Below are positions 20,458 through 56,768 of a DNA stretch of 64,000 nucleotides, in pieces (the first letter of the stretch is position 1; each line of letters begins with the position of its first letter). The notes beneath the pieces were generated by a model, which was not told the origin of the DNA, ran no database searches, and saw only the letters and a list, made by a program, of their open reading frames with translations. The DNA comes from a virus (Duplodnaviria; Caudoviricetes): the IMG/VR virus record IMGVR_UViG_3300027759_000001. The stretch is one strand, 5' to 3'. A program made the translations under genes and the position numbers.

Positions 20458-20602
20458 AAGACAAACGAAAAGGGTTGAACCGAGATTACCCTTACAACTC
20501 GGCGGAATGAGACACGATGTTCTCTGGGTGAAAATCCTCAATCTTACTCGTGATGTAAGATGAAATTACACTCCCCCATTGGTACCAGTGGGGGTTTATT
20601 TT
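20458..20602 (+). ncRNA. Candidate structured small RNA (H-type pseudoknot plus hairpins)
   Basis: AAGGGT/ACCCTT and CCGAG/CTCGG crossing stems; GGGT-GAAA-ATCC; ATCTTAC/GTAAGAT; ends in a terminator. Confidence 0.45.
20573..20602. terminator. Intrinsic terminator, probably bidirectional
   Basis: CCCCCATTGG-TA-CCAGTGGGGG then TTTATTTT. Confidence 0.8.
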
Positions 20603-21015
20603 GCGGTAATAACTAGTTGACCTCTACCGACATAAAAATCAGACTTCCGCATAACGGTTTTAATAATAAGATTAAATTCGTAAGGATTAACTTCTTGTAT
20701 TAGAATTGGAATATTAAGAAGGTTTGATTCATCTTTAATTACAAACTCAACACCATCATATAATTCACCAATGACAATATATTGTACGATATCATCCTTT
20801 ACCTTATCTACTGATTTTAAGATATCATAATCTCTAATTGCATCACCACCTTCTGAAAAATGTCTTGTTTTTCTCGTTTCCGCATGGGACTTCATTCCAG
20901 GTACATTTCCACGTTGGTATCTTAAATTCATGGTAACAGTAAGGTTTGCTTTGATCTCAGCAATCTTCTTTTCTAAGATTAAAATTTTACGTATTGATTC
21001 TCTAAGTAATGACAT
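20596..21015 (-). CDS. Hypothetical late protein with LRES leader; possible BECR/RelE-like RNase
   Basis: MSLLRESIRKIL leader; SHAETRK..R and IIKTVMRK motifs. Confidence 0.55.
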   Translation of the reverse strand: MSLLRESIRKILILEKKIAEIKANLTVTMNLRYQRGNVPGMKSHAETRKTRHFSEGGDAIRDYDILKSVDKVKDDIVQYIVIGELYDGVEFVIKDESNLLNIPILIQEVNPYEFNLIIKTVMRKSDFYVGRGQLVITAK

Positions 21016-21064
21016 AATTATATAAATACCTTATATTGATATTTATAAATACAAAACAATTACT

Positions 21065-22288
21065 ATGAAAGAAAAATTTTTACCTTGGTTTTTATTATTT
21101 TGTGCTCTTGGTCTATCAGGAACTGCCGCTTATTATAGTGTGGTAGGATTATCAGTGGTATTTGTTGGTGTTGCGTTACCTGTAATCATTATGGGATCTT
21201 TTCTTGAGGTATCTAAGATTGCAATTGCCACATACTTACACGACAAGTGGAAAGAAACATACGGAGTCTTAAAGATATACCTTACAATCGCTCTAATAAC
21301 TTTATCTCTTATTACTTCACTTGGTATCTATGGTTTATTGAGTACTGGGTTTCAGGGGAATATTGCAAAACTTGAGATTAATCAAAAAAAGATTGCAAAT
21401 GTTGAAGTAAAGAAAACAAGATTTATTGAAATAAAAAACGAACAACAGAAAGAGAAAGATGTATTAGATAAGGACATTTCAAAGTTAAGAGATGGATTAT
21501 CTACCAATACCACAACACAATCTGTAGATAGAAAAACAGGTCAACTTATTACAAAGGCAAATAATGCTAACCGTAAATCATTTGAGGATCAATTAAAACT
21601 TACCACAGAAAATAGAGATAAGGTATCCACTCGTATTGATGGTATGAATGATAGTATAACTAAATTAGATATTGAAATACTTAATATGGAATCTGCTGAG
21701 TTGGAAGGTAGTGAGTTAGGATCTATTAAATACATTAGTGAGATTTCAGGTTGGGATATTAAACAAGTTGCAAACCTTTTCATTTTACTTTTAATTTTTG
21801 TATTTGATCCATTAGCAATTACATTAGTTATTGCGACTAACCAAGCATTTAAAAAAAATAAAAAAGAAAGTAGTACCATACATGATACCATACATGATAC
21901 CATACATGATGAGGTTGAAGTTCCTGAAAGTTACTTTCATAATTATACCCCCCAAGTCACCCCCCAAGTCACCCCCCAAGTCACCCCCCAAGTTACCCCC
22001 CAAGTTGAACCAATTGTAGTTGAAAAAATTGTTGAAGTTATTAAGGAAGTGGAGAAGATTGTTGAGGTCATTAAGGAAGTAGAAAAAATTGTTGAAGTAC
22101 CTGTAATAGTACATAGAGATCCATTAAATATTATTGAGGTAAATACTTGGGAACCAACATTTGCTGATAATATGTCTGAGGAAACTGAATATGATATGAT
22201 TAGTAATGGAACGGGTGGTGAGTCAACAACTACCACAACAACTGATGATGGTATTAAAAGATTAGTTTATAAAAAGAACGATGAATGA
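21065..22288 (+). CDS. Multi-pass membrane protein with coiled coil and short repeats
   Basis: Three N-terminal and one central transmembrane segment; TIHD x3, PQVT x4-5 and VEKIVEVIKE repeats. Confidence 0.75.
   Translation: MKEKFLPWFLLFCALGLSGTAAYYSVVGLSVVFVGVALPVIIMGSFLEVSKIAIATYLHDKWKETYGVLKIYLTIALITLSLITSLGIYGLLSTGFQGNIAKLEINQKKIANVEVKKTRFIEIKNEQQKEKDVLDKDISKLRDGLSTNTTTQSVDRKTGQLITKANNANRKSFEDQLKLTTENRDKVSTRIDGMNDSITKLDIEILNMESAELEGSELGSIKYISEISGWDIKQVANLFILLLIFVFDPLAITLVIATNQAFKKNKKESSTIHDTIHDTIHDEVEVPESYFHNYTPQVTPQVTPQVTPQVTPQVEPIVVEKIVEVIKEVEKIVEVIKEVEKIVEVPVIVHRDPLNIIEVNTWEPTFADNMSEETEYDMISNGTGGESTTTTTTDDGIKRLVYKKNDE
21874..21995 (+). repeat. 12-nt tandem coding repeats (accatacatgat x3; ccccaagtcacc-like x5)
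   Basis: Read directly from the sequence. Confidence 0.85.
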
Positions 22289-22883
22289 TGAAAACGTTAT
22301 AAAATTCGGAGACTTCAATTATGAAGGTGAGGAAAAAAATAAAAGTCAAATTATTTTATCACACACTTCAAGGGTTGCAACAGATTATATAAATGCGTTA
22401 AAATATAGGTACGGTAAGAAATACAATAAAGTTCCTAATTATATAATCACTCGTGATGGTAAGATAATAGAACTATTGGAACCAAAAAAATACTCCAAAT
22501 ATATAAATGATGAGAACATATCCAAGAAATCAATAACGGTTTCTTTGGAAAATTTAGGTTGGTTAGAAAAAGAACCATTAAAAAATAGATACATTAACTG
22601 GATTGGTAATATTTATAATGGAAAGGCTTTTGAACGTAAGTGGAGAGATTATTTTTTATGGCAACCTTATACTGAAGTTCAAATTGATAGTACCATACTA
22701 ATATGTAAAAAACTAATGGAAGATTTTAACATTAGTAAAAAATGTGTAGGTCACAACACCAAAGTAAATGGTGTGAATCAATTTGATGGTATTGTTACCA
22801 GAAGCAATTACACCACAGATGTTACGGATCTAAGTCCGGCATTTGATTTTGATTATTTTAAAAAAAATATAGAAGATGAATAG
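22281..22883 (+). CDS. N-acetylmuramoyl-L-alanine amidase (Amidase_2-like), probable endolysin
   Basis: IILSHT, NYIITRDGKI, SITVSLEN, YTEVQI, VGH, DLSPAF. Confidence 0.75.
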   Translation: MNDENVIKFGDFNYEGEEKNKSQIILSHTSRVATDYINALKYRYGKKYNKVPNYIITRDGKIIELLEPKKYSKYINDENISKKSITVSLENLGWLEKEPLKNRYINWIGNIYNGKAFERKWRDYFLWQPYTEVQIDSTILICKKLMEDFNISKKCVGHNTKVNGVNQFDGIVTRSNYTTDVTDLSPAFDFDYFKKNIEDE

Positions 22884-23475
22884 ACACGATGAAATAAAAA
22901 ATTTAATAGAGGCATCTAAAAAATTATTAAATAAAAATTTAATTACTGAGGATATTAACCGTATCAGAAAAAATCACGGATTAATATTGGAACAAGGTGA
23001 GCAAGGACCAACCGAAGATCAACCTAAAAACTATGAGACCGCAGAAGATGGGATGGGAGATAAAGAAGAAAATACGGATGTTGTAAAAACTGACAAGTCA
23101 AAGGGTTATAGAATATCTGGTGGTATTATTGTTATTCATGGTAAAGATAAATCTGACTTACAATTAACTACTGACGATAAGAAGGCGTTCCAAGAAACTA
23201 TGGATGATTTTGTTACTGAGGTATCTGAAATTGTAGACTTTAATAAATTAAATCTATACTCAAACAATGTTGAGTGGTCAGGTAAGATTACTGAATTGGA
23301 TGTTGAGTTTTTCTATTCAATCGGGGAAACAAATGGTATATACATAAACGGTACAATGACTAAGATTGATGACGATTATTTAGAATTCTTAAATAAGTTG
23401 AAACAATACTATGAGAAATTCAAATCTAAGTGGTCTAAAGTAATTGCATCAAGAAAGAAAACTCCTGAGTCATGA
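22876..23475 (+). CDS. Hypothetical protein with LITE/ILEQ leader
   Basis: ORF; leader motifs. Confidence 0.65.
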   Translation: MNRHDEIKNLIEASKKLLNKNLITEDINRIRKNHGLILEQGEQGPTEDQPKNYETAEDGMGDKEENTDVVKTDKSKGYRISGGIIVIHGKDKSDLQLTTDDKKAFQETMDDFVTEVSEIVDFNKLNLYSNNVEWSGKITELDVEFFYSIGETNGIYINGTMTKIDDDYLEFLNKLKQYYEKFKSKWSKVIASRKKTPES

Positions 23476-23825
23476 AAAAGTTTTTAAATGATAATTTCAA
23501 GTACATTTTAATTGTTGTTGGTGCGGTGGTATTATACGTATTACTATTGGATCTAATGAAACCATCAAATGGTATGACTAAAGAAGATCTAAAGAAAATA
23601 GAACAAATAGATAAAGACATTAATTTGTTGATTGAAAGTCAAAAGAAATTAGACGAATCAATTAATGAGTATAAAAAACAAATTGAGAAAATTGATTCAA
23701 CAATATCTAACATCAAAGTTAAAAAGGAAGTAGTAAATAATTACTACGAACAAAAAGGGAAAGAGATTAAAGATGCTAATGTTAAACAAGTTGATAGTTT
23801 ATTAAGATCAAGATATAAATTTTAA
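23472..23825 (+). CDS. Transmembrane plus coiled-coil protein (possible spanin-like)
   Basis: N-terminal transmembrane helix, heptad repeats, near the amidase. Confidence 0.55.
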   Translation: MKKFLNDNFKYILIVVGAVVLYVLLLDLMKPSNGMTKEDLKKIEQIDKDINLLIESQKKLDESINEYKKQIEKIDSTISNIKVKKEVVNNYYEQKGKEIKDANVKQVDSLLRSRYKF

Positions 23826-23827
23826 GT

Positions 23828-24238
23828 ATGAAAAATATAATATCAGTATTATTTCTTTTGGTGTCGTTGACATCATTTAGTCAAATCAAAAAAGTTGACA
23901 CAACTGAAATATGTTTACCTTATAGTGTTGGTAAACAAATTATGTTGGATCTAAATAGATTAGATTCCACAACGGCAATCCTTAAATTAACTGAGACTGA
24001 AGTTATTGAATTAAATAAAAAAATAGATGCTCAACAAGGAATTATTGGGAATTTAGAAGATAAAGTTAAGATAGGTGATACAATAGTTCAAAAAACTAAT
24101 GAGAAATTTGATATCGTTGATAAAATAAATAAAGATTTAGTTACCGATAACAAAAAATTAAGAAGAAAGAATGTAATTATAGAAATAGTCTCAGGTATTT
24201 TAATTGGGGCATTAACCTATCAAGTAGTAACACAATAA
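23828..24238 (+). CDS. Signal peptide, coiled coil and C-terminal transmembrane helix (possible lysis accessory)
   Basis: MKNIISVLFLLVSLTSFSQ; C-terminal IVSGILIGALTY. Confidence 0.55.
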   Translation: MKNIISVLFLLVSLTSFSQIKKVDTTEICLPYSVGKQIMLDLNRLDSTTAILKLTETEVIELNKKIDAQQGIIGNLEDKVKIGDTIVQKTNEKFDIVDKINKDLVTDNKKLRRKNVIIEIVSGILIGALTYQVVTQ

Positions 24239-24483
24239 TGGCATTAACACAAACAGATAAAAAAGAAATTGAAACTTTAATTAGAAAAGAAATGAAAGAT
24301 TTCTTGGGATCTACTACTGCCAAACAATTTGAAGATAAATTAATTGAAAAAGTCTCTAAAGACATGAAAAGAGGTAAACTAGAAGGTGATATTAAAGATA
24401 TCGTTGTGAAATCATTCAGAGAATTTTTTACAATGATGTTCCATCAAAGAAGTTTCTGGGAATCTAAATTTAGAAGTTCATAA
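24238..24483 (+). CDS. Hypothetical protein
   Basis: Translationally coupled ORF. Confidence 0.6.
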   Translation: MALTQTDKKEIETLIRKEMKDFLGSTTAKQFEDKLIEKVSKDMKRGKLEGDIKDIVVKSFREFFTMMFHQRSFWESKFRSS

Positions 24484-25259: not shown

Positions 25260-25281
25260 TATTTATTAAATAAAAATAACT

Positions 25282-26589
25282 ATGAACAATTATTTAAAAA
25301 ATAAAATTCAAAAACTTATCAACGAAACTTTAGAAGATAAGGCAAATGAAGTTATGGAAAAATTAAAATTTAACAAACCTGGTAGCTCTTTTGACTACGT
25401 TGAAGAAGCTGAATGCTCAGAATGTGGTGGAATGGTTAGAGAAGGTGAATGTTCAGAATGTGGATATATGTCCGAAGGTGACTCACAAGAATGTAATGAA
25501 TGTGGTGGTGAAATGAGAGAAGGTGAATGTTCTGAATGTGGATCCAAAGGTGGTGAAATGATGGAAGATGACGAAATGGATTTTAAAACTCCTATGAGAG
25601 ATGCTATTAGATCACATAAAGGTAAATTTAGAACTCCTATGAGAGATGCTATTAGATCTAATAAAGGTAGATTTAAAACTCCTATGAGAGATGCTATGGC
25701 TATGAGATCTCGTAAAGACAGACATAATGATGTTGAAGATGACATGAACGAAGTTGAGTTGGATGAAAAATTATACGGAAACCAAAAAAGAATTGATAAA
25801 AACCATAATGGAAGATTAGATTCGCAGGACTTCAAAATGTTAAGAAAAGACAAAAAAGAAGATGTAAATGAAAATGTGTTTTATGAATTAACAACTGCAG
25901 TAAATGGTAAAAGAGAAAAACTTTTATTTAATGAAAGTCAGTTTGAAGAAATGATTGAAAATATTGTTTTAAAAGAAGAAGGAAAATTCAATAAAGGTAA
26001 GACACCGGCTGGGTATGCTGAATATGAAAGATCTATTAAAACGTCAAAAAAAAATGAAGAAGGTTATATGAAAGATTTAACCAAAAAAATGAAAGATTAT
26101 TTGAAAGACGGATCTAAAGGCAAATATGAAATGTCACCAAAACATTTTCCAAAAGGAAATGGTGAATTAGAAGAAATGTCTAAAAAAGCTTATGTTGCTT
26201 CAGGTGCAATTGAAGATTATATTGATAACTTCACTGCCGCTGGTTTGGAAAACTTAGATTATGATGAAATCCATCCTGATGAAGATTGGGTAACTGACAA
26301 CGTTGTTGGGTCTTCAAGAACGGGTAATAATCCTGAATGGGCAAACGCAGTTGAGACACCAAATAACGAGAAGAGAAATAAGATTAGAAAAGATAATATG
26401 TTGGCTAAACTTAAGCGTAAGGCTTACAATAAAGCGCCTCAACCAGTTGTAACTGATAAGTCAAGTGGCGGTAAGGCTGATAGTATTATGACTAAGTTAG
26501 AATCTATTGATGAAAAGAAAAAACAAAAAATCAATGAGGATTTTACACGTATTATGGATTTAATGTCTTATAAGAAAAACACCCAATAA
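25282..26589 (+). CDS. Putative head core or internal protein with CxxC repeats and an EF-hand-like loop
   Basis: ECSECG repeats, DKNHNGRLDSQDF, LINE/FNES/KINE motifs, TATTTAT upstream. Confidence 0.6.
   Translation: MNNYLKNKIQKLINETLEDKANEVMEKLKFNKPGSSFDYVEEAECSECGGMVREGECSECGYMSEGDSQECNECGGEMREGECSECGSKGGEMMEDDEMDFKTPMRDAIRSHKGKFRTPMRDAIRSNKGRFKTPMRDAMAMRSRKDRHNDVEDDMNEVELDEKLYGNQKRIDKNHNGRLDSQDFKMLRKDKKEDVNENVFYELTTAVNGKREKLLFNESQFEEMIENIVLKEEGKFNKGKTPAGYAEYERSIKTSKKNEEGYMKDLTKKMKDYLKDGSKGKYEMSPKHFPKGNGELEEMSKKAYVASGAIEDYIDNFTAAGLENLDYDEIHPDEDWVTDNVVGSSRTGNNPEWANAVETPNNEKRNKIRKDNMLAKLKRKAYNKAPQPVVTDKSSGGKADSIMTKLESIDEKKKQKINEDFTRIMDLMSYKKNTQ
25582..25698 (+). repeat. 45-nt coding tandem repeat, about 2.6 copies (F[K/R]TPMRDAIRS[H/N]KG)
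   Basis: actcctatgagagatgctat recurs at 45-nt spacing. Confidence 0.85.
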
Positions 26590-29076: not shown

Positions 29077-29985
29077 ATGAATAATGAAAACTATTACGGG
29101 GTTTTAGGTGTTGATGAAAAGGCAACACAAGAAGACATCAAGAAGGCATATAGAAACCTAGCAAAAGAAAATCATCCTGACAAAGGTGGGGATGAAGAAA
29201 AGTTTAAGAAGATCACTGAGGCGTATGATACGATTGGAGACGCAAATAAACGAAGTCAATACGATAATCAACGGAGTAACCCATTTGGTGGTAATTTTGC
29301 TGATATGTTTCATTCATTCAATCAACAACGACAAAGACAAGATACTCACACTAGTGTGATTACGGTGAACATAGGGGTGTTGGATTCATATTTAGGTAGG
29401 AATAAACAAATTACATATAAGAGAAAGACTAGTTGTAATGTTTGTAGTGGATCAGGAGGGGAGAAGAAGGTATGTACTACCTGTAATGGTATTGGTAGTG
29501 TTATGAAACAAATGGGTACGGGTATGTTCGTACAAGTTGTTAATATGATGTGTGATACTTGTTCAGGTACTGGTAAAATTACTATAAATGCTTGTTATTC
29601 GTGTAATGGATCGGAGACTAAAGATGAAATGAAAACATTGGATGTTAAAATACCTCATGGGTTAGAGGATGGTCAGTTCATAAGAATGTCAAATGTTGGT
29701 GATTTTAGAAATGGTAGATTTGGGGATTTGGTTATAAGGGTTAATTTAATGGAAGAAAATGGTTTCTTTAAGAACGGACCACATTTAATATATAACTCTT
29801 ATTTAAACTATGAAGATCTTATAAAGGAGGATATAAACATACCTCATCCTGATGGTGAGTTAAATATTAAATTACCTAAGTTATTTGATTCCTCAAAACC
29901 TTTGAGAGTTAAAGGTAAAGGATTTAAGGTAGATCAAATTGGGGATCTATTAATTAATCGGATTGTTAGGTTTGAAAGACCTTAA
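29077..29985 (+). CDS. dnaJ: DnaJ chaperone
   Basis: J-domain HPD, four CxxCxGxG-type repeats, DnaJ C-terminal domain. Confidence 0.92.
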
Positions 29986-30158
29986 AATAAGGACATGATA
30001 TCTTTATATAGAGCTATTGCACCATATATTGATAGGGCAAACATAATACCACCAGTGATAAAAACAAATTTTTGCGTTTTACCTGTTGTTTGATTACACT
30101 TTTTGCATCCCGTTACTTGAGTTGCTTCTGTTTTGTTGTTGTATGTTTCTTCTTCCAT
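29982..30158 (-). CDS. Small CxxC plus transmembrane protein; not in the ORF track
   Basis: 58 aa [36 protein letters not shown]. Confidence 0.55.
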
Positions 30159-30218
30159 AATTTTTTGTTATAATAATAATTATACATTAAAACAATTTAT
30201 AAGTGAATAATTTTTGAA

Positions 30219-30247
30219 TTGACATATCATCATAGAATTCGTATATT
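30219..30247 (+). promoter_or_regulatory. Canonical sigma70-like promoter
   Basis: TTGACA(30219)-N17-TATATT(30242). Confidence 0.65.
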
Positions 30248-30262
30248 TCTAATAAAAAAACT

Positions 30263-31102
30263 ATGTTATCATATATTGGAGGAAAAAGTAAGATAGGAAA
30301 GTGGATAGTCCCTTTCTATGATAAAGATATGGAAACATATGTTGAAACATTCGGTGGGATGTTTTGGTGTTTCTTTAATATGGATCTAAGTCAGTTCCCT
30401 AATCTTAAGAAAGTTATATATAATGACTTCAACCCACTTAACCATAATCTATTTGAATGTATTAAGAATCCTGAAAGATTATTGGAATCAATCAACGCAA
30501 TCCCATGTCAACAATTTGGTGTGGAAATTACACCATCAATATATAAAGAACAATTTATCAGCTTTCAGGCTGAAATATTTGATGAAAATTTCAGGGTAGA
30601 ACCTGGTAATTATGATGTTGCAGCTAAATATGCGTATGTTTTAACACAAGTGTTCTCAGGATCTAAACCTGAAAAAAGTTCTTTCATTGACTTAAAAGGT
30701 AAGTACAAATCTAAATACTTAACATTCCGAGATAAATTAATAAAACCTGATTGGGTTGAACATTTCTTAAGAATAAGTGATGTGGAGAATATGGATTTTG
30801 CTGAGGTGATTGAAAAGTATGATTCACCAACAACTTACTTCTATGTTGATCCACCTTATTGGAAGACTGAAAACTATTATTCTAATCACGATTTTGATAG
30901 GGAAGACCACGAGAGACTTTCAAAGTCATTAATAAATATGGAAGGTAAATTCAGTTTATCGTACTATGATTTTGAATTATTACACGAATGGTTTCCTGAA
31001 GATCAGTACAAATGGGAGAAAAAAGAGTTTGCTAAAGCGGCAGCGGCAAAAAAGGGAACAAAACAAAATATGGGTGAGGAATTATTAATAATGAATTACT
31101 AA
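30263..31102 (+). CDS. dam: DNA adenine methyltransferase (Dam/D12 class)
   Basis: YIGGK, YVETFGG, YNDFN, FYVDPPY. Confidence 0.85.
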   Translation: MLSYIGGKSKIGKWIVPFYDKDMETYVETFGGMFWCFFNMDLSQFPNLKKVIYNDFNPLNHNLFECIKNPERLLESINAIPCQQFGVEITPSIYKEQFISFQAEIFDENFRVEPGNYDVAAKYAYVLTQVFSGSKPEKSSFIDLKGKYKSKYLTFRDKLIKPDWVEHFLRISDVENMDFAEVIEKYDSPTTYFYVDPPYWKTENYYSNHDFDREDHERLSKSLINMEGKFSLSYYDFELLHEWFPEDQYKWEKKEFAKAAAAKKGTKQNMGEELLIMNY

Positions 31103-31145
31103 TCATTTTTTTATACTATTGGAATATTTATATTAAAAACTTATT

Positions 31146-33035
31146 ATGGAATTAATTAAGGTATTAACATCTGTCATAAAAGAAAATACAAACGGTAAAC
31201 GTATTGTAAGTGAGGCAATGTCTGAAAAAGTCATTAAATTTTTAATTGACAAATTTAAACCTACAACTAGAGATACTGAAGAACAAATTACGGCAGTTAT
31301 TAACGCATTTGAGAAATATAAAAATGGGTTACCTCAAGATCAAAGAGATATCACCAAATTAACTTATACTATTGTTAAGAACATTGTTTTATCAAAAGAG
31401 ATTAAAAAACAAGAAAAAAGTATATTCAAAAAATATATGGAAGCCAATAAAGGTGCCGACAAAAATGCGGTTAAATTGGCATTACGTAAGTTTTACGAAT
31501 TGTTTCCAATCCTACCTATAAATCAAAGAGACGTTCTTAAAATGCCTTATTTGAAATTGGTTGAGTTTTTACAGAGTAAGTTTAATACTATGTTAACATC
31601 AGCGGCACTTAAGAAATTTAAAGATGATAAGGTTAATGTAACACCTGAACAATTAATTTATTATGTTTCAACATATTTGGATCTATATCATAGGTTACCT
31701 GCAAATTTACCACCATTGTTGTTTATGAGTTTTGATGAACTTGAACATACATTAGATGGTATGGGAGATTTAACTGATGACATTAAAGATACAAAAGATG
31801 ATTATTCTGACATTGAAACAATATATGATGATGATAACTTATTAATCTTCAAACCAAGTGGTAAGGAACAATGTATTAAATTGGCTAACGGAAGAAGTTG
31901 GTGTATATCTAAATCAGGTGGTGGTAATATGTATTACAATTATCGTTTGGGTAATAACTTAACAATTTATTATGTTATTGATAAAGATAAACCATTTGGT
32001 GACCTTAACTATTCAGTTGTCATCTTAGTTGAGCCTTATGGTGGAAAACGAATTGCGGATGGTCAAAATATGTCAGGAGGTTATTCAGGTCATAGGAGAG
32101 AAGAATGGAGTACAATTGTAGGTAAAGTTCCAAAATTAAAAGGTAAAGAACATTTGTTTGTTGCGGATCCATTGAGTACTGCTGAACAAAAAGTACTGAA
32201 TGACTACAAAAATACTACCATCAATAAAGATGCGATTAAAGAACTTGGTAGTGAACAAGCAGCTGAAATGTGGCTTGAGCTTTCAAGTCCTGATTTAACA
32301 TATAGAAGTAATGGTGATGAAATTTATCGTAACTTTACCGAAAATCTTAAAAACAAATACTTAGGGTTGGGAATGGACTTGACCGCTGAAATGATTAATA
32401 ATTCTGAACCTAGTGTGTTGAAATATTATGCAGCAAGAAAACTTCAAGGTTTGATGTCAAAAAGTTTAGGTCAATTGAGTGATTCCGATATTGCATTCAT
32501 CAATAGTCCTATAATGAGAGATAATAAGAAAAAATTAAGAGAAAAATTCTCAGGTCAATTAGCCGGAGTTAGTAGTAGTGGTTATGTTGGTCTTGAATAT
32601 CCAAAAGATGATAACTCTAAGTATGTTGCATTATTTGGGTTTGATGATTTCTTTCAACATATTCCAACTAATACAACTATGATCCAAATGGAAAATACAA
32701 GTAAAACTCCAATTGCTTTGGATTTACCGGAAAGTATTGGTAAATTAACCGAATTAAAAACATTGATTATTGATAATATGGTTAAGTCAATCCCTGAAAG
32801 TATTGGAAATTGTACCAAATTGAAATTTATAAACTTACCTAATAACCCACAATTGGAAAGTATTCCTGAGGCGTTTGGTGAATTGTATTGTTTGAACTTC
32901 TTCTCAACGGAGAATTCAAATCCTGGTATGAGAATACCTAAAAAATTAGAAGAATATATGACAGAGGATGAAGGATTTTGGTTTATCAATTTCCCTCCTG
33001 AATTGAAGAAACATTGTGGACCTATAAGATCTTAA
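31146..33035 (+). CDS. Late protein with a WCIS domain and C-terminal leucine-rich repeats
   Basis: CIKLANGRSWCIS; LPESIGKLTELKTL, IPESIGNCTKLKFINL, IPEAFGELYCL. Confidence 0.75.
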   Translation: MELIKVLTSVIKENTNGKRIVSEAMSEKVIKFLIDKFKPTTRDTEEQITAVINAFEKYKNGLPQDQRDITKLTYTIVKNIVLSKEIKKQEKSIFKKYMEANKGADKNAVKLALRKFYELFPILPINQRDVLKMPYLKLVEFLQSKFNTMLTSAALKKFKDDKVNVTPEQLIYYVSTYLDLYHRLPANLPPLLFMSFDELEHTLDGMGDLTDDIKDTKDDYSDIETIYDDDNLLIFKPSGKEQCIKLANGRSWCISKSGGGNMYYNYRLGNNLTIYYVIDKDKPFGDLNYSVVILVEPYGGKRIADGQNMSGGYSGHRREEWSTIVGKVPKLKGKEHLFVADPLSTAEQKVLNDYKNTTINKDAIKELGSEQAAEMWLELSSPDLTYRSNGDEIYRNFTENLKNKYLGLGMDLTAEMINNSEPSVLKYYAARKLQGLMSKSLGQLSDSDIAFINSPIMRDNKKKLREKFSGQLAGVSSSGYVGLEYPKDDNSKYVALFGFDDFFQHIPTNTTMIQMENTSKTPIALDLPESIGKLTELKTLIIDNMVKSIPESIGNCTKLKFINLPNNPQLESIPEAFGELYCLNFFSTENSNPGMRIPKKLEEYMTEDEGFWFINFPPELKKHCGPIRS

Positions 33036-37208: not shown

Positions 37209-37290
37209 AATATTTGTTTTAATAGGTTTATTTAATTATAAATATCAGAGAAGTATCATATTTTGTAAACCATTAAATATTTATTGTAAT

Positions 37291-38826
37291 ATGAAAAAAG
37301 TTGTAAGGATTAACGAGAGTGATTTAATTGGATTAATAAAGAATATTATTATTGAACAAGATGATAGTGTTGAGTATGAAGATTTCACTCCACAAGAATA
37401 TATGGATTTATTAAAGTCTGTTAATTATAAAGCACAAGCGATTCCTAAGTTTCCTGATTTCAAAGGTAAAAAAATAAGAGTAAATGGTAACTTACCCTTA
37501 ATGGGTTTAAAACAAATAACTAATTTGGGTGAGTTAATTGTGACTGGTGATTTAAATCTTCGTTCCTCAGGTATTGTAAGTCTTGAAGGTGTTACAGTTG
37601 GTGGTAGTTTAAGTTATTGGGACACACCATATAGTAAAGAAATTGATAGAAGAAAAGAAATGGCTTTAAGGGCTGAAGCCAGACAAAGAAGAGAAGATGG
37701 TGAATGGGATTTAAATAATTCTAATATTGATGACGAAGGTTTAATGGCAAACGCAGTTTTTGATTATATGGTTCAAGAAGGTGATATTGGATATTTAGAT
37801 GGACCAGAACGTGAAGAATTAGAAGATTTGGAAAGAAGAATGGAAGAACTTGAGGAAAGAATAGATAACGAGGAAGATTCTGAAATTGTTGATGAATTGG
37901 AGATTGAACAAAATGATTTGCAATCCGAGATTGATGAACTTAAGGATAAAGATAATGATGTGTATGATTTAATACCTGAGGGTTCCCATTATGACTTATA
38001 TACATTTAGGTCAATACATAATGATGCTAGTGGTTATATTTATGCGGTTGGAACTGAAAATGAAGCGGATAGTTCCCTTAAAGAGTATTATGATGAAATG
38101 GTAAATGATTTAAGTAATTTTGATAAAAATACTTTATCTTACCATATTGATGGTGACGAAGTTGCGGAATATTATGAAGACATGATTCGTGAATGGGTTA
38201 TGGACGATCCTGAAAATTATGATGTTAGTAGGGAAACTAGTGTTAAACAAGATAAAGAAATTGAAAAATTACAAAACCAAAAAAGGTCACTTGAAATAGA
38301 AACATATTTAATTTCAAGTGGAGCTAGATCTCCTCTTATAGAGGAAGATGTTGAATCTGTAAAATACTTCAAATTTAATGATTATATGGATAATATTTTA
38401 ATTGTTGAATGGTCTGAAAATAAATGGCAAATTTACCAAAACGGTAAAAAAGTTGAGTCAGTAACTTATGAAGATGAAGATGAGGATGGTGAACATGAGT
38501 CGGATAATGAATCAAGGGTTGAAGAAATTGAAAGTGAAATAGAAGGTATAGACGAAGAAATACAAGATATAAAAGATGATCCAGATGGTGATTTAAATGA
38601 TGATGAGGTTGAAGAAGCCGTTGAGGATAGGTTATTTCAAATTAAAGATGACCCAATGAGTTGGTTAGATGAAATGGGTGATGACTATAATAATTTTATA
38701 GATAGACAAAGTTTATTAAATGATTTAATAGATGAGAATGATTATGGTGTAATAAGTAGTTACAACAATGAATATGACACCGTTTCAGTTAATGATTCAA
38801 CTTTTGTTGTAATGAGAATTGACTAA
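37291..38826 (+). CDS. Highly acidic putative head-packaged protein with short LRR-like repeats
   Basis: MKKVVRINESDLIGLIKNIIIEQ leader; VTGDLNLRSSGIVSL..VTVGGSL. Confidence 0.7.
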   Translation: MKKVVRINESDLIGLIKNIIIEQDDSVEYEDFTPQEYMDLLKSVNYKAQAIPKFPDFKGKKIRVNGNLPLMGLKQITNLGELIVTGDLNLRSSGIVSLEGVTVGGSLSYWDTPYSKEIDRRKEMALRAEARQRREDGEWDLNNSNIDDEGLMANAVFDYMVQEGDIGYLDGPEREELEDLERRMEELEERIDNEEDSEIVDELEIEQNDLQSEIDELKDKDNDVYDLIPEGSHYDLYTFRSIHNDASGYIYAVGTENEADSSLKEYYDEMVNDLSNFDKNTLSYHIDGDEVAEYYEDMIREWVMDDPENYDVSRETSVKQDKEIEKLQNQKRSLEIETYLISSGARSPLIEEDVESVKYFKFNDYMDNILIVEWSENKWQIYQNGKKVESVTYEDEDEDGEHESDNESRVEEIESEIEGIDEEIQDIKDDPDGDLNDDEVEEAVEDRLFQIKDDPMSWLDEMGDDYNNFIDRQSLLNDLIDENDYGVISSYNNEYDTVSVNDSTFVVMRID

Positions 38827-44501: not shown

Positions 44502-44586
44502 AATATATATTTTTAATTGGTTTAAGCTAATTTACATAAAAACATTGGATTTGCAAACTTTTTTTTGTTGAAAACTATTTATAACT

Positions 44587-46143
44587 ATGAAGAAAAAGTT
44601 AATAACGGAATCGGGAATAAGAAACATCAGGGAATTATCTAAAAGATACCCTGAGGCTAAGATATATTTTCACCAAGATTTAGATGGTGTAACCACTGCT
44701 TTAGGTATGAAAAATTACTTAGAACAAAATGGAATCAAAGTTGTTGACTCTGAGATTATTCAATATGGTGATAAGGAATTCGCAATTAAGAAGTTGGATG
44801 CTGAGGGTGATGTTATGCCGGTGTTAGTTGACTTTGCTCATGGTAAACCAATGTTTATTATACACACTGACCACCACGATACACAAGCGGGAGTTGAACA
44901 AGGTACCTCAACTAATTTTAAATCTTCAAGATCTAACGTTGAGACAATATCCCAAACCGTATCTCCAAGAGATATTTTCCCATCTGACGATATCACTTTG
45001 ATATCTACGGTTGACTCAGCAAATTATGCTCAATATGATATTAGTCCTGAACAAGTAATGAACTATTTGTTTAAGGTAGATAAAGATCAATCACTACAAA
45101 AAAACAAAATGATAATGGGTATGGTTGCTAATAAATTATTATTGGCATTTAAAAACAAACCAGGGTTCTTGGAAAATATTGTAATGAATGCAAATCCATC
45201 GTTATTAAGTATATTGTTAAACATCAGATCTCAGATCAAAGAAAAAAGTTATGCTGATGTTGGAGATTTAGAAAAAAACAAAGAGAGTTATGTTCAAACA
45301 ATGAAAACTCACAAAAATGTTAAAGTTGATGATAAAATTATAGTTCAGTATGGTGGGGGTAGTATGATGAAACCAGGATCATATGATAGATACACACCAT
45401 TCAGAAATAATCCTGATGCAGACTTCTTGGTGATTGCTTGGCCGTTAGGGTTGGTACAAGCGTCTTGTAATCCATTTAAGAAAGAAAGAGCACTTAAAGG
45501 TGTAAACTTAGGTGAGATCAAAGATGATGTCTTAAACAAGTGGAAATCACAATTACAAGATAAGGACATTTCATTATCTACAATAAAATGGATATCAGAA
45601 TCAGGAAAAGGTTTTGGTGAACAATCAGTTGGTTTTACATTCAGAGATTTTAACGCCTTATATGGTAAAGAATTTAAACAAATGGCCGATGGGGAAGATA
45701 TCCTTGGTGATGTTGAAGTGGCAATGAAAAAACCATTCAGTGATTTAACAGATAAAGAAATGAGAATGTTAGATTCTATTAGTGTAAACGCTTGGGATCT
45801 AATTCAATCCAATAGTGGTGGACACAAATGTATTACAAATATTTCTGGGTTGTCATACTTAGGTAGATCTAAAAGACCACCTAAGGGTAAATACAAATAT
45901 AATGAAGAGTCAGAGGATTCTCCTTATATTAAATTTACTAAGATGGTACAGAATGAATTTGTTAGAGTTTTAAAAGCAAAAATTGATGAAGACGGTGGTG
46001 ATAGATATGAGCCGAATTTTGAGGTTGAAATGACGGAACACTCAAGGTCATTAAGTAACGCTAGAAAACAAGGACAAGGATTAAGATTTCCAAAGTCGGC
46101 AGTAAAATCAAATCAAATGAGATTTAGACCAAATAATAGATAA
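44587..46143 (+). CDS. DHH-family phosphoesterase with LITES leader
   Basis: HQDLDG, LVDF, DHHD and C-terminal GGH motifs. Confidence 0.7.
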   Translation: MKKKLITESGIRNIRELSKRYPEAKIYFHQDLDGVTTALGMKNYLEQNGIKVVDSEIIQYGDKEFAIKKLDAEGDVMPVLVDFAHGKPMFIIHTDHHDTQAGVEQGTSTNFKSSRSNVETISQTVSPRDIFPSDDITLISTVDSANYAQYDISPEQVMNYLFKVDKDQSLQKNKMIMGMVANKLLLAFKNKPGFLENIVMNANPSLLSILLNIRSQIKEKSYADVGDLEKNKESYVQTMKTHKNVKVDDKIIVQYGGGSMMKPGSYDRYTPFRNNPDADFLVIAWPLGLVQASCNPFKKERALKGVNLGEIKDDVLNKWKSQLQDKDISLSTIKWISESGKGFGEQSVGFTFRDFNALYGKEFKQMADGEDILGDVEVAMKKPFSDLTDKEMRMLDSISVNAWDLIQSNSGGHKCITNISGLSYLGRSKRPPKGKYKYNEESEDSPYIKFTKMVQNEFVRVLKAKIDEDGGDRYEPNFEVEMTEHSRSLSNARKQGQGLRFPKSAVKSNQMRFRPNNR

Positions 46144-48019: not shown

Positions 48020-48078
48020 ATTTATTTTTTATTATATGGTTATATTTATATAATAAATAAATTTAATAAGCAATATTT

Positions 48079-48291
48079 ATGTTACCTAAAATAAAATTAA
48101 CGGAAAGTGAAATCAGAGACATTTTGAGTAAACATGGTGTAAAGACTAATGTGTTGGTTGAACAAACTCAAAATTATACTACTGCGGATATTCAAAATTG
48201 GTTAAATTCTAATAAAAACGCAGGATTAGATGTTGACGGTAAATTGGGAATTTTAACGGTTAAGGCCATAAAAAATGCGTTAATGGGATAA
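48079..48291 (+). CDS. Small protein with LTES leader and a peptidoglycan-binding-like motif
   Basis: IKLTESEIRDIL; IQNWLN..LDVDGKLGILTVKAI. Confidence 0.7.
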   Translation: MLPKIKLTESEIRDILSKHGVKTNVLVEQTQNYTTADIQNWLNSNKNAGLDVDGKLGILTVKAIKNALMG

Positions 48292-48294
48292 GAT

Positions 48295-50448
<2,154 letters not shown>

Positions 50449-51594: not shown

Positions 51595-51620
51595 ATCATA
51601 ACTCCAATATATTTATTACT

Positions 51621-52139
51621 ATGGATGATATGTTTGCATACAACTCACAATTTTTACCTGGAACACAAATTACCGTTGTGTTTAAGGAAAATCCAAATTA
51701 TAGTCAATTAAATGAATTTTTTAATGAGTATGGTTATGGATTTTATGCGCCTGAATTTAAAACAATTTTTATAGACGGTGAGATTTTTTTAGGTGAGGAT
51801 GGATTAACTATGGATGATTTACGTTTTATTGAAGCTCACGAAATATCACATTTAATATTAAAACATGATGGTCCAAGATCTGAAAATGATGAATTAGAGG
51901 CGGATCTAGGTGCATATATTCTTTTAAAGAATAAAAATTTATCAACTGATCGTCTTATTGACGAGTTTGAATATAGACACGGAATAGAATTCTCTGAAGA
52001 TCTTATAAATAAGATTGGAGATAAATTCCCACATACATTGAGAGAGAATAGTATAATCAATTGGGAACTACATCAACAACTGATGGAAAAAAAATACGGT
52101 AAAAGAAAAATAGAAACCGAATTTAAATTCAAAAAATAG
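51621..52139 (+). CDS. Zincin metallopeptidase-like protein
   Basis: AHEISH plus downstream ELEAD; TATTTAT upstream. Confidence 0.65.
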   Translation: MDDMFAYNSQFLPGTQITVVFKENPNYSQLNEFFNEYGYGFYAPEFKTIFIDGEIFLGEDGLTMDDLRFIEAHEISHLILKHDGPRSENDELEADLGAYILLKNKNLSTDRLIDEFEYRHGIEFSEDLINKIGDKFPHTLRENSIINWELHQQLMEKKYGKRKIETEFKFKK

Positions 52140-52370: not shown

Positions 52371-52557
52371 TAAGACAGGGAAATGTGATTCCTATTTTGG
52401 GTTCTTCAAAAATGAGAAAGATGCGGAACACGAAGTTGAAATCCAATCCAACAGACTTAAGGAAGACTTGGGTATGATGGATATTGACATTCAAACAGAC
52501 CGAGCATTATTCAATGGTAAATTAGTAATAGTAATTCATAGATACGTATTAAGATGA
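52336..52557 (+). CDS. Hypothetical protein
   Basis: ORF in operon. Confidence 0.55.
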   Translation: MDQREMIYGVCDKTGKCDSYFGFFKNEKDAEHEVEIQSNRLKEDLGMMDIDIQTDRALFNGKLVIVIHRYVLR

Positions 52558-52916: not shown

Positions 52917-52930
52917 AAAATTTATAAAAA

Positions 52931-54049
52931 ATGGAAAATAATAATAGTGTATGTTATGTTGGTTTGATCGGTGAGATTATACCAATAGAAGGTGCGGATA
53001 ACATTGAACTTGCATTGGTTGGTGGTTGGCAAGCCATCACCAAGAAAGGTGAATACCAAGTTGGTGATATGGTTGTCGTTGCAACCACTGATGCGGTTAT
53101 ACCACAAAAACTTTCTGATGACTTAGGTGTTACAAGTTATCTTCGTAAAGGTCAGAGAGTAAGAACTATAAAACTTCGTAAGGTTTATTCTGAATGTTTA
53201 ATAATACCAATAGGGTTTGTTCCGGAAAAATATAGATATGATGGTTCTGACTGCATGGAGTTACTTGAAGTGTTTAAATACGAACCACCAGTTAAGATGG
53301 TTCAGTTAAGTGGAGGTAGAAAATTTAAATACCACCAAAACCCTAACTTTCATGTTTACTACAAGTTTCCTAACTTAAAGAACGCACCTGAAATGTTTAA
53401 CGAGGAAGACATAGTTACTGTTACTCGTAAACTTCACGGAACAAATGCTCGTTATGGAATTGTTAGAAAGAAAAGATTTTCAATATTTGATAGAGTTAAA
53501 AAATTGTTTGGGGTTCAATGGGTAGGATATGAATACGTTTACGGATCTCATAATGTAGAAAAAGGTTCTGACTCTCAAGGGTTTTATGAAACTGATGTAT
53601 GGAGAGACACTTCTGAAAATTATCAAATCAAAGAAAAACTTTGGAAGTTTGTAAAAACATTTGGGTCTGAGGAATTTTTGGGTGATGGGTTAATCATCTA
53701 TGGTGAGATATATGGTCATGGGATCCAAAAAAATTACAATTACGGACTTGAAGATATAAAGTTTGCTGGTTTTGATATTGAATTAAATGGTAAATACTTA
53801 CCACACCACGATGAAAAAAACATCTTTGAAGGTTTGGACTTACCAAGAGTTGAAGTTCTTTATATGGGTCCATGGTCTAAAGATGAGCAAGACAAACACG
53901 TATTTAACAACATGATTAAAGGAACCAAAGTTCCACACGAAGGTGTTGTTGTTAAATCTGTTACTGGTGATAGACATAAAGTTGGTAAAGTTATCAATCC
54001 TGACTACTTGATCTATGGTGAAAAAAATAACGTAGGTGACTCCCATTAA
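52931..54049 (+). CDS. RNA ligase (DRB0094/Rnl2-like, with N-terminal OB/tRNA-binding domain)
   Basis: IEGADNIELA..GWQAI OB domain; RKLHGTN motif I, YGEIYG, FDI, EGVVVK, K..NPDYL. Confidence 0.85.
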   Translation: MENNNSVCYVGLIGEIIPIEGADNIELALVGGWQAITKKGEYQVGDMVVVATTDAVIPQKLSDDLGVTSYLRKGQRVRTIKLRKVYSECLIIPIGFVPEKYRYDGSDCMELLEVFKYEPPVKMVQLSGGRKFKYHQNPNFHVYYKFPNLKNAPEMFNEEDIVTVTRKLHGTNARYGIVRKKRFSIFDRVKKLFGVQWVGYEYVYGSHNVEKGSDSQGFYETDVWRDTSENYQIKEKLWKFVKTFGSEEFLGDGLIIYGEIYGHGIQKNYNYGLEDIKFAGFDIELNGKYLPHHDEKNIFEGLDLPRVEVLYMGPWSKDEQDKHVFNNMIKGTKVPHEGVVVKSVTGDRHKVGKVINPDYLIYGEKNNVGDSH

Positions 54050-54070
54050 CTTGATGGGGTCACTTTTTTT
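54036..54070 (+). terminator. Intrinsic terminator
   Basis: GTGACTCCCAT...ATGGGGTCAC followed by T7. Confidence 0.8.
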
Positions 54071-54087
54071 TATTATTATTAAATAAC

Positions 54088-54297
54088 ATGGAACAAAAAT
54101 TAAATGTATTTTCATTTCTATCAAAGAATATTTTATTTTACGCAATTATTTTATTGATAGAGAATGATTACAATCCACTTAATTGGTGGATATTAAGTGG
54201 GTTCTTTCAGATTGTAATAACAATAGTTTTTGAGTTATATATACTTGGAACATCATTAGAAGAAAAAAATATAGAAAATGGGTATAAAGAAAATTAA
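54088..54297 (+). CDS. Small membrane protein
   Basis: Two hydrophobic helices. Confidence 0.55.
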   Translation: MEQKLNVFSFLSKNILFYAIILLIENDYNPLNWWILSGFFQIVITIVFELYILGTSLEEKNIENGYKEN

Positions 54298-55246
54298 AAA
54301 AGAAAACAATTCAATTAACATTAGTTTAGTTGATTTAATGGGTAAATTAGATAATAGTGAGACTAAAAAGTATACACAATTTTTAGTTAAAATACTTAAA
54401 AAAAACTTTGATAATGAACAGGATTTCTTGGTAAGAGATTCTTCACATAGGGAAAGAAAGATTGATCAAGTTTTAAATACTAGTACGTTTGATGGTTGGA
54501 TTACAAGAAAAATACTTACTAATTTATATGGTTGGGATGAAGTTGATTCATTTATTAATTTTTGTGAATTTATGGAAAGAGGATTAATTAATGAAAAAGA
54601 CATTAGTAAATACGATAGTTGGGAAATGGTTACAAGTGAAGTATTCCAAGCTAAAAATCGTAATTTATTTAAAATGGCTAAAAAAGAAGTTAAAGTTGTT
54701 TACGAAGATGATCAATATATGTGTATTAAACCATTAACTTATGCGGCATCTGTTTCATATGGTTATCAAACTAGATGGTGTACTGCTTCAGTTCAGGAAC
54801 CTAGTTATTTCTACAATCACTCAAAAGACGGCGTACTTGTATATTTAATTGATAAAATCAATAATGTGAAATTTGGGTTTTACCATAATAGTTATCAAAT
54901 TCAAATATACAATCAAAAAGACGATAGAGTAGATTCAATGGAGACAGGTATTCCGGTAGAATTATTACATAAGTTGATTGGTGAAATGAAATCTGAAGCT
55001 AAAGATAAAAATTTTAATTATAAGTTATTTGGTGAAAGTGAATTGGAAAACATGAAAAAATATAGAGGTAATGATACTATGGTGGAACCAGTTCCAATGG
55101 ATGAAATGTTAATGGAGGAAGAACCAATACGTTATGAAAATGAAATAATGGAGCAAAGTGTGTCGGAAATGTTAAATAATTTACAAGAAAGAGTTCGCAG
55201 ATTAAGACCTACAAATCCACTTGAGATTGGTGATGACTTACCATAA
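54278..55246 (+). CDS. Hypothetical protein with a YGYQTRWCTA domain (PcfJ-like)
   Basis: IKPLTYAASVSYGYQTRWCTAS. Confidence 0.65.
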   Translation: MGIKKIKKENNSINISLVDLMGKLDNSETKKYTQFLVKILKKNFDNEQDFLVRDSSHRERKIDQVLNTSTFDGWITRKILTNLYGWDEVDSFINFCEFMERGLINEKDISKYDSWEMVTSEVFQAKNRNLFKMAKKEVKVVYEDDQYMCIKPLTYAASVSYGYQTRWCTASVQEPSYFYNHSKDGVLVYLIDKINNVKFGFYHNSYQIQIYNQKDDRVDSMETGIPVELLHKLIGEMKSEAKDKNFNYKLFGESELENMKKYRGNDTMVEPVPMDEMLMEEEPIRYENEIMEQSVSEMLNNLQERVRRLRPTNPLEIGDDLP

Positions 55247-55263
55247 TTTTAAAAAATTATAAT

Positions 55264-55548
55264 ATGGATGATTTAAGTAAAAACATTAAAAAAATGTATT
55301 TGAGAATAAATGGTGAAATAACTGACCATGAAATGTCACCTCCTCCATCAAAAAAAGTTAAAACTTTTACTCTTGATGAGGATCAGGTTAAAAAATTGGA
55401 GGAGTGGCAATCACACATAAAAGCGATATATGGTCAATATGGTGATTATGAGTATAGATTCTCAAGTAATGGAATTGGTCAAATTGTTACGGTATATAGT
55501 GAATTGGCTGACATTGAATTAGATCTAACTGATGTTAGTAGTTGGTAA
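55264..55548 (+). CDS. Hypothetical protein
   Basis: ORF; terminator hairpin at about 55567-55596. Confidence 0.6.
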   Translation: MDDLSKNIKKMYLRINGEITDHEMSPPPSKKVKTFTLDEDQVKKLEEWQSHIKAIYGQYGDYEYRFSSNGIGQIVTVYSELADIELDLTDVSSW

Positions 55549-55628
55549 AAACAAATTATACGGAAGAACCCTCAGTAGAAATATTGGGGGTTTTTTACTT
55601 TATGAAGTATTTATATTAAAAACCATTC

Positions 55629-56768
55629 ATGGAAGATAAAAAAATTATTATTGAAGAATTAAGTAGGATTAAAAATCTTATGGTTTATGATAGATCTAAA
55701 ACATTAAATGAAAATATTAATGAAGGTTTGTTTGACACTTCGGATGGTAAGATAGCGAGATGGTTATTACCTTCAGGTGATATCATTACCGGAGATAAAA
55801 TAAAAGGGATGATACCTACAGGGGCGGAACAGTTAAATGCTAAAAATGCGGAAAAAGCGATTGATATTGCTAGTGGGTTGAAAACCGCTTCCTCTCTTTT
55901 TGGTGGTGGAGGAGCAACTGCTGCGGCAACAGGTGCTGCTGAGGTTGGAGCTGGTGCCCTTGAGGTTGGAGGCATTACGTATAGTGCTGGTGCGGTTGGT
56001 GCTGGTGCGGTTGGTGCTGGTGCGGTTGGTGCTGAGGGTGCTGCAGCGGCTACTTTTTTAGGTTTAGGACCTGTTGGTTGGATAGTAATCGGTGTTGCAG
56101 GTCTTGCGGCTTTAGGTTATTGGGCGGCAACAAAGGATGATAAAATGGGTATGATTGAAAATTTATTTGGAATTTGTAAATCAAGTAAAGAAAAGGATAA
56201 GTGGAAAAGATATATGAGTGATGAGGAGGTTAGAAAAAATTCAGGTATATTATACCATGCTATGGAAGGTTGGGGTACAGATGAGGATGCAATTTATAAT
56301 GTATTTAAATTGTTTAAAAGTCCTGGTGATTTTTGTGCGGTAAGTGAAAAATATGAAAGTACATTTGACGAATCATTATTAGATGCTTTAGATGGTGACT
56401 TTGATTATGGTTGGGAACCAATTGCAAAATCTTTAGTTGATATGACTAAAAACTATGCTCAAACTGAGGCTGAAGATTATTGTAAAAATAACGTTAAAGA
56501 ATGTGCGGACAAATTAAAATTGTATTGTGAAAAAACGCCTGACGATCCTAAATGTAAAGTTTTGAAAACTAATGTTGTTGACTTTAAAAATTGTAATGGT
56601 GAATACTATAAAGGATGTAAGGGACCAAAAATAGTACAAATACAAAAATGTTTAGGTTTAACTGCCGATGGTAAATTTGGTGAAGAAACAGAAAAAGCGT
56701 TGGAGGAGAAAACAAAAAGTAAAACATTCAAAGACGTAGATGTTAAAACAATATGTGATAAAAAATAA
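55629..56768 (+). CDS. Late protein with a Gly/Ala hydrophobic segment, an annexin-like repeat and a peptidoglycan-binding motif
   Basis: LYHAMEGWGTDEDAIYNVF...KYESTFDESLLDALDGDF; IVQIQKCLGLTADGKFGEETEKAL. Confidence 0.7.
   Translation: MEDKKIIIEELSRIKNLMVYDRSKTLNENINEGLFDTSDGKIARWLLPSGDIITGDKIKGMIPTGAEQLNAKNAEKAIDIASGLKTASSLFGGGGATAAATGAAEVGAGALEVGGITYSAGAVGAGAVGAGAVGAEGAAAATFLGLGPVGWIVIGVAGLAALGYWAATKDDKMGMIENLFGICKSSKEKDKWKRYMSDEEVRKNSGILYHAMEGWGTDEDAIYNVFKLFKSPGDFCAVSEKYESTFDESLLDALDGDFDYGWEPIAKSLVDMTKNYAQTEAEDYCKNNVKECADKLKLYCEKTPDDPKCKVLKTNVVDFKNCNGEYYKGCKGPKIVQIQKCLGLTADGKFGEETEKALEEKTKSKTFKDVDVKTICDKK

Follow-up and report, generated by a model that had tools for sequence, protein, structure and literature searches.

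Candidate T4-style capsid-targeting propeptides on many unrelated proteins of an uncultured freshwater jumbo phage lineage

Phage T4 can direct proteins into its head by short N-terminal leaders that are cleaved during head maturation. We analysed a 64-kb stretch of viral DNA (IMG/VR record IMGVR_UViG_3300027759_000001; hereafter the window, meaning the whole 64,000 nucleotides) for such leaders, and compared its proteins with those of related phage contigs. The N-terminal segments of nine window proteins, named here by the lowest coordinate of their genes, and of about 50 proteins in a complete relative are read here as T4-style capsid-targeting propeptides, greatly expanded in number, and we give this reading a probability of about 0.6. 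The leader, an amphipathic and mostly basic helix of about 7-28 residues, would recruit a late protein to the scaffolding core while the prohead is being assembled. Its terminal Glu closes a hydrophobic-hydrophobic-x-Glu motif similar in kind to LINE/A in the capsid protein (a slash marks the position after the Glu), and a gp21-type S77 prohead protease would then cut after this Glu. Once released, the cargo would remain inside the head alongside the DNA, with which it would probably pass into the host. Scaffold binding, cleavage, presence in the virion and ejection are all proposed here by analogy with T4.

Comparison of N-terminal sequences shows that the lineage has at least four conserved leader classes. 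Class c1 has the consensus MKKVIRLTE/SDLTRIVKRVINE/ (MKKVIRLTESDLTRIVKRVINE when unmarked), with a slash after the Glu of each hydrophobic-x-Glu (hxE) motif. Class c2 reads MNLQE/.IRRILREE or MNLQEQISRI.SMMG.I.E, class c3 MK.LIR.ILKE/E and class c4 MKIIITE/.Q, and c1 itself looks two-part, with a c4-like piece followed by a c3-like piece. All four classes end in [ILV][ILV]xE, and the terminal Glu is 90-100% conserved. Profile searches detected class leaders on 51 of the 386 open reading frames (ORFs) of G019 (~13%), a 304-kb relative rated complete, and on 32 of 121 ORFs in 80 kb of a second relative, G006; strong matches to the leader profiles were nearly all N-terminal. After removal of their first 26 residues, the 51 G019 leader proteins fell into 44 unrelated cargo clusters. 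In several cases related G019 cargos bear different leader classes, which makes leaders and cargos exchangeable modules. A strict c1 DNA pattern was found in at least 120 IMG/VR stretches, and many of the contigs concerned are 250-410 kb long. The helical hydrophobic moment is 0.54-0.94 for most leaders (background 0.29±0.15), and their net charge ranges from 0 to +3. By inspection, the leaders lack the unbroken hydrophobic core after a basic N-region that marks Sec, Tat or lipoprotein signals, and K/R/E/D recur every 2-3 residues. None of the papers searched contained the leader strings, and tblastn of a 23-residue c1 leader against sequenced phages gave no match, the query being too short for this to mean much.

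Complete leader copies also occur inside two G019 proteins. A c1 copy including its Met lies at residues 295-316 of a 432-aa protein encoded beside the capsid gene (L286:1671-2969), and a c2 copy including its Met lies at residue 114 of a 235-aa protein (L281:13511-14218). Such proteins may have arisen by cassette fusion, or may be polyproteins that are cut internally.

The 15 c1 copies of G019 allowed the boundary and the level of conservation to be examined. Residues 1-22 are conserved, with E9 and E22 invariant, and from residue 23 onward pairwise amino-acid identity is at most 0.18, which is the background level. Such conservation might reside in the nucleic acid, with a functionless peptide, if these sequences served translation initiation on bS21-modified ribosomes or acted as a recombination substrate for cassette shuffling. 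The clade does encode bS21 (PMC9723584), the promoter-like motif described below lies 4-29 nt from the ATG so that 5' leaders would be very short, and related cargos with different leaders imply recombination. However, the c1 amino acids are held constant through synonymous changes (TTA/CTA for Leu, AGA/CGT/CGA for Arg, and third bases). At L7 the amino-acid identity is 1.00 and the first-base identity 0.47, and at T8 the amino-acid identity is 0.87 and the third-base identity 0.30. The DNA upstream of the G019 c1 leaders is not conserved, and recombination may be just a by-product. The synonymous codon variation together with the unconserved upstream DNA shows that selection acts on the peptide rather than on DNA or RNA, and we regard a purely nucleic-acid function as extremely improbable.

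The site at which the leaders end was compared with the capsid protein of G019. The G019 head module is T4-type, with a Terminase_6N large terminase (TerL), a Portal_T4/gp20 portal protein (254 bits), a gp21-type S77 prohead protease (Peptidase_S77, gene at 135771-136499, 79.8 bits; cut-off 27 bits), a gp23-like capsid protein (214 bits) and a long, acidic scaffold (pI 4.25) that is probably disordered. The capsid protein reads ..ASFLINE/ATSEG with the Glu at residue 60, and 80 related capsid proteins (73-100% identity) have LINE/A without exception. T4 gp21 cuts after L/I-X-E (PMC9026906), and 65 N-terminal residues of gp23 are removed (PMC9958956); the equivalence of the two capsid sites was judged by distance and context, not by alignment. 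The class ends VINE, ILKE, IITE and ILRE are the same kind of site as the capsid LINE, and the end of the c1 consensus differs from it at P4 alone (V for L). Small G019 head-module genes without known function carry c3-like leaders (such as KIIKE/A and KILRE/ATSDSSG), and the portal, terminase and tail genes of G019 are without such leaders. The preliminary description of this DNA had proposed cleaved capsid-targeting leaders on unrelated late proteins; the G019 protease, the LINE/A site and the ~50 Glu-bounded leaders fit this proposal, of which packaging, cleavage and injection are the parts that we infer. One of the head-module proteins, G019_141671 (..KILRE/ATSDSSG, like the mature capsid start ATSEGSNG), was considered as a gp24-like capsid paralogue and rejected, BLASTP giving no significant similarity.

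In the window, the nine N-terminal strings reported in the preliminary description were all present as written at their genes, and all nine proteins have an hxE-type motif, at residues 6-39. The pattern [ILV][ILV]xE[ESNQTAGD], in which the Glu is followed by a small or polar residue, occurs within residues 1-30 of 14 of the 96 window ORFs, compared to 4.8±2.1 after shuffling (reached by 0 of 500 shuffles), and all nine candidates fall inside these 14. Similarly, [IL][TNR]ES within residues 1-15 was found in 4 of 96 ORFs compared to 1 of 1194 internal windows. Both of these tighter patterns were picked post hoc, after the data had been seen, and the comparison with relatives is therefore the stronger test. 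Profile hidden Markov models (HMMs) from the relatives matched only 37291 strongly (c1, E 1.6e-13); 44587 matched the first half of c1 alone (E 0.016) and 48079 its first half (E 0.031), both borderline. Contrary to the proposal of a shared leader, the nine proteins carry leaders of several types and unequal strength.

The case for a leader is strong for 37291, 48295 and 55629 (Table 1); 37291 belongs to class c1, whereas 48295 and 55629 each have a leader type of their own, in which conservation ends sharply at the Glu. All full-length homologues of 37291, at 40-97% identity, retain the leader, with E22 invariant. Its AlphaFold model (mean predicted local distance difference test, pLDDT, 88.6) has a helix at residues 9-23, pLDDT below 50 at residues 19-25 and a body from residue 30 at ~90; as a prediction, it shows a detached N-terminal helix and a low-confidence junction around E22. 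Structure searches with the model matched no fold in PDB (best E 0.14) or in AFDB clusters (best E 0.04). Mean pairwise identity among 16 distinct orthologues of 48295 drops from 0.84 in residues 1-26 to 0.39 in residues 27-60 and 0.29 in residues 61-200. Pfam places a PG_binding_1 domain at residues 474-511 of this protein. Between phages in which the DHH-like gene next to it is 97% identical, its own identity is only 32-66%. Such hypervariability suggests that it is probably host-facing, behind a strictly conserved 26-residue leader. The 55629 leader (consensus EEL.RIKNLM.YDRSKTLNE) is common to two other proteins, with divergence right after it. The 55629 orthologue G012_19817 starts MKDKKLILEELNRIKNLMGYDRSKTLNE and then diverges, homology returning only from residue 142, and a leader of this type is found in G006_71390 as ..EILRIRLLSNYDMKSTLTE/. 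Four metatranscriptome studies yielded contigs that span portions of 37291, 44587, 48079 and 48295; they were not used as evidence, since strand, start and timing are unreadable from them and DNA is a possible source.

Table 1. Candidate leaders and leader-like N-termini in the window (a slash follows each hxE Glu; aa, amino acids; LRR, leucine-rich repeat)
Gene	N-terminal segment	Strand	Sequence	Protein	TATTTAT
37291	37291..37356	+	22 residues, class c1, MKKVVRINE/SDLIGLIKNIIIE/	511 aa, 37291-38826	37278..37284 (+), 6 nt before ATG
48295	48295..48372	+	26 residues, MKKITDSLLKKIVRQSLNE/SYGLLNE/	717 aa, 48295-50448	
55629	55629..55712	+	28 residues, MEDKKIIIEELSRIKNLMVYDRSKTLNE/	379 aa, 55629-56768	55608-55614
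48079	48079..48162	+	leader-like, MLPKIKLTE/SEIRDILSKHGVKTNVLVE/	70 aa, 48079-48291	48043-48049
44587	44587..44610	+	short, c4/c1-like, MKKKLITE/SG	DHH-like, 518 aa, 44587-46143	44576-44582
20596	20971..21015	-	c2-like, MSLLRE/SIRKILILE/	139 aa, 20596-21015 (N-terminus at 21015)	21022-21028 (ATAAATA on +)
31146	31146..31184	+	c3-like, MELIKVLTSVIKE/N	LRR-containing, 629 aa, 31146-33035	31125-31131
25282	25282..25326	+	MNNYLKNKIQKLINE/T	zinc-ribbon, 435 aa, 25282-26589	25260-25266
22876	22876..22992	+	39 residues, LITE/ at residue 25, LILE/ at residue 39	199 aa, 22876-23475	

For 48079, 20596, 31146, 25282 and 22876 the case is moderate, and for 44587 it is ambiguous. Both hxE motifs of 48079 are retained in its orthologues. 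The N-terminus of 20596 is alike by eye to MNLQE/SIRRILREE, with a one-residue indel; its profile match is weak (E 2.5), and no orthologue was found among the relatives compared. The remaining three, 31146, 25282 and 22876, fail the profiles. The G019 orthologue of 31146 is 51% identical and starts MKLVKILSSVIVE/N, the LRR Pfam matches of this protein being weak. That of 25282 reads ..NLFRKVLTE/TLEGKADEIMEKLKF, differing before the Glu and conserved after it, and that of 22876, at 62% identity, retains both motifs as LLNE/ and MITE/. Some orthologues of 44587 have an extra c3 leader, MKDLVIQILTE/ES, ahead of KKLI.ESGIRDI, and the LITE of 44587 may be either an additional site or a piece of the mature protein and its fold.

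The weaker members 22876, 25282, 31146, 20596 and 44587 could also be ordinary unpackaged proteins in which hxE arose by chance, their N-termini being rich in K, I, L, E and N at 30% G+C. Composition alone gives [IL]xE in about one fifth of N-termini, these five proteins fail the leader profiles, and the tighter pattern also matches five additional ORFs that look leaderless in every other respect. In contrast, the G019 orthologues (46-62% identity) retain the hydrophobic and Glu positions amid changes in the adjacent residues, and TATTTAT lies directly upstream of four of the five genes. We consider chance a distinctly unlikely explanation for this group.

Relatives differ from the window at two loci. 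Their forms of the DHH-like protein 44587 are 781-938 aa long, being extended considerably at the C-terminus and preceded by an additional c3 leader, MKDLVIQILTEES (L039/G006 29120-31936). The locus at 51621-52139 was considered as a case of leader loss and rejected: the relatives have a 409-416-aa c4 protein (MKIILTE.QY..), of which the last 30-90 residues alone are shared with the leaderless 172-aa protein of the window. This partial C-terminal sharing suggests replacement or a swapped cassette rather than simple loss.

Several observations weigh against reading these N-termini as capsid-targeting propeptides. The preliminary description had rested on the loose (I/L)xE motif, which is not enriched over shuffled N-termini: [IL]xE within residues 1-15 was found in 22 of 96 window ORFs compared to 18.6±3.0, and within residues 1-30 in 34 of 96 compared to 31.0±3.8. 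The loose motif thereby fails the shuffling criterion for refutation that the preliminary description itself had set. In the K/I/L/E-rich proteome of the window, (I/L)xE alone is at chance level and too weak to carry the claim. Six of the nine window proteins have no leader-profile match at E<0.01. Class c4 and the 44587 N-terminus are too short for an amphipathic helix, and SGIRDI after LI.E in 44587 is as conserved as the remaining protein, so that this Glu may be structural. The protease and the capsid site were read from relatives, not from the window's own molecule; no head genes were found on the nearest relatives, G001-G006, and another relative closer than G019, G018, has only the C-terminal end of a gp23-type gene, its record ending inside it. 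No cultured relative was found, the closest capsid proteins of sequenced phages being at most 40% identical. Pfam and PHROGs searches with nine window cargos and ten G019 cargos gave weak or no matches, and with cargos lacking recognisable families, a role as injected effectors is a guess. Finally, the leader Glu is usually followed at P1' by N, E, S or Q, compared to A at the capsid site.

This last difference would also fit leaders that were amphipathic localisation or assembly tags for another destination, such as a membrane, a replication or assembly compartment or an oligomer, with the terminal Glu lying within the helix and left uncut by the head protease. That the leaders are amphipathic helices, and that many cargos are small and of no known family, would suit such tags too. 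However, conservation ends exactly at an invariant Glu after two hydrophobic residues in four otherwise different classes, and the same motif is the invariant site of the capsid propeptide. In addition, c3-like leaders are present on genes within the head module, and the junction is predicted to be flexible in the 37291 model. Another destination is an unlikely explanation in our judgement. The leaders might instead be degradation or unfolding tags for a phage Clp-type AAA+ ATPase, or recognition sequences for modifying enzymes as in RiPPs (ribosomally synthesised and post-translationally modified peptides), which would time or modify late proteins. ClpB/ClpA-like ATPase and Hsp20 genes do adjoin the G019 head module, but a Clp tag would not need a sharp Glu boundary, no maturase was noticed near the leader arrays, where no systematic search was made, and the identity of the motif with the capsid maturation site would be left unexplained. 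We consider either of these roles very unlikely. Collectively, the comparisons favour capsid-targeting propeptides.

The preliminary description had also noted TATTTAT upstream of most candidates, and this was borne out. Within 45 nt upstream of the start, the motif precedes seven of the nine candidates, 4-29 nt before the ATG, and 9 of the 87 remaining window ORFs. The two candidates without it, 22876 and 48295, both lie directly behind another gene, the start of 22876 overlapping the 3' end of its predecessor. Over the whole window, this late-promoter-like motif is found upstream of 16 of 96 ORFs, as in the 51610-51616 region; its distance from the ATG is 4-38 nt, and in every case it lies on the coding strand. 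The motif precedes 23 of the 51 leader genes of G019 compared to 73 of the 335 others (odds ratio 2.9, p 8e-4). It is also found in G019 before the protease gene, the gene intervening between portal and protease, and two tail-region genes, and the terminase gene is preceded by TATTTAT followed by T. If TATTTAT is a late -10 element, the late mRNAs would have almost no 5' leader, which would be of interest since this phage clade encodes its own bS21. The G019 bS21 gene (61 aa, L285:15003-15188, minus strand; Pfam 28.1 bits) is located between the portal and protease genes in the opposite orientation. This arrangement matches that of published freshwater bS21 phages with predicted Bacteroidetes hosts, in a paper that does not discuss leaders (PMC9723584).

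The source phage is an uncultured freshwater jumbo T4-like phage. The window is coding dense, with 30% G+C and 96 ORFs chiefly on the plus strand, and no tRNA genes were found in its 64 kb. Its matches among sequenced phages are weak only, all to uncultured huge phages, and hundreds of freshwater contigs in IMG/VR have 70-97% identity to window genes. CheckV estimates for the related IMG/VR contigs imply a genome of ~300 kb. Four of the candidates, 22876, 25282, 31146 and 37291, occur in the same gene order in G019, at 284150, 286495, 293063 and 299123, respectively. In G006, the DHH-like orthologue of 44587 is 89% identical and gene order is the same as in the window; beyond the part that corresponds to the window, the downstream region of G006 is crowded with leader-bearing genes. 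The window lies at the edge of a leader-rich region, containing its weaker fringe and one clear member. A 249-kb phage of an LR745206-like clade, G007 (capsid HSINE/N), was tried as a model for the lineage and rejected, having none of the four leader classes. Phages of 150-640 kb in this LR745206-like sister clade (L090-L168) have a different gp23-type capsid protein, with ..YAEFHSINE/NAY.. in 78 of 78 copies.

The T4 precedent is the capsid targeting sequence (CTS), reportedly described by Mullaney and Black in 1996. As with the CTS, the tags described here are N-terminal, sit on otherwise unrelated late proteins and end in hydrophobic-x-Glu; the gp23-type capsid protein has the same motif, and the portal, S77 protease and gp23 of the G019 head module are of T4 type. 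In T4, the CTS or propeptides of the internal proteins IPI, IPII and IPIII and of Alt are removed by the prohead protease gp21 (PMC9026906, PMC3012670, PMC9958956). The first ten residues of IPIII suffice for entry into the scaffolding core and are removed by gp21, and foreign fusions are packaged and delivered (PMC9026906). The internal proteins of T-even phages form a highly diverse, defence-countering set with only the CTS in common (PMC3012670). The present lineage differs from T4 in having leaders on ~50 genes per genome (13% of G019 ORFs) rather than a handful, and at least 4-5 unrelated leader classes. Its leaders reach 22-28 residues, often with two hxE motifs, compared to 10 residues for the T4 CTS, which was compared by description, and P4 is also hydrophobic, unlike in the T4 motif as cited. 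In the jumbo phages phiKZ, 201phi2-1 and SPN3US, likewise, many head-internal proteins are cut after Glu by a gp21 homologue (gp175/gp245-type), some propeptides having multiple redundant sites (PMC9026906, PMC7411985, PMC10052503). The phiKZ-type site is S/A-X-E with a small P3 (PMC9026906), whereas P3 here is I/L/V in all classes and at the capsid site, and so is P4. Unlike these leaders, phiKZ-type propeptides are long and have no shared short leader, and those phages have no clear match to the gp23-type protein that is present in this clade. Encapsulin cargo-loading peptides and the encapsulation peptides of microcompartments are also short, transferable and often amphipathic helical tags that send unrelated cargo into a shell. 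They bind the shell itself and are not removed, whereas the tags described here terminate in a protease site and would have the scaffolding core as their partner.

The principle is thus already known from T4, and these leaders extend it in scale, diversity and host range without adding a new mechanism; what is new is the number of leaders, the several longer and unrelated classes, the exchange of leaders and the clade itself. A rather speculative extension, which we think unlikely, is that the leader types (c1-c4, the RIK.LM type and the two-part type) form a combinatorial address code for the ~50 cargos, specifying position, copy number or order of ejection, with leader recombination swapping cargos between addresses. 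Such a code, if true, would be a plug-in injected arsenal far larger than described for T4-like phages. Reuse of the leaders for protein delivery, raised in the preliminary description, is already established for the T4 CTS (PMC9026906); if the present reading is true, capsid loading would gain new tags that are longer than before, together with hydrophobic-hydrophobic-x-Glu as a defined protease site. The leader would also be a sequence label by which injected proteins, likely anti-defence or host-takeover factors, could be found in metagenomes without culturing. Together, these comparisons suggest that, if the leaders work as in T4, a widespread freshwater phage clade packs dozens of fast-evolving proteins without known fold into its heads.

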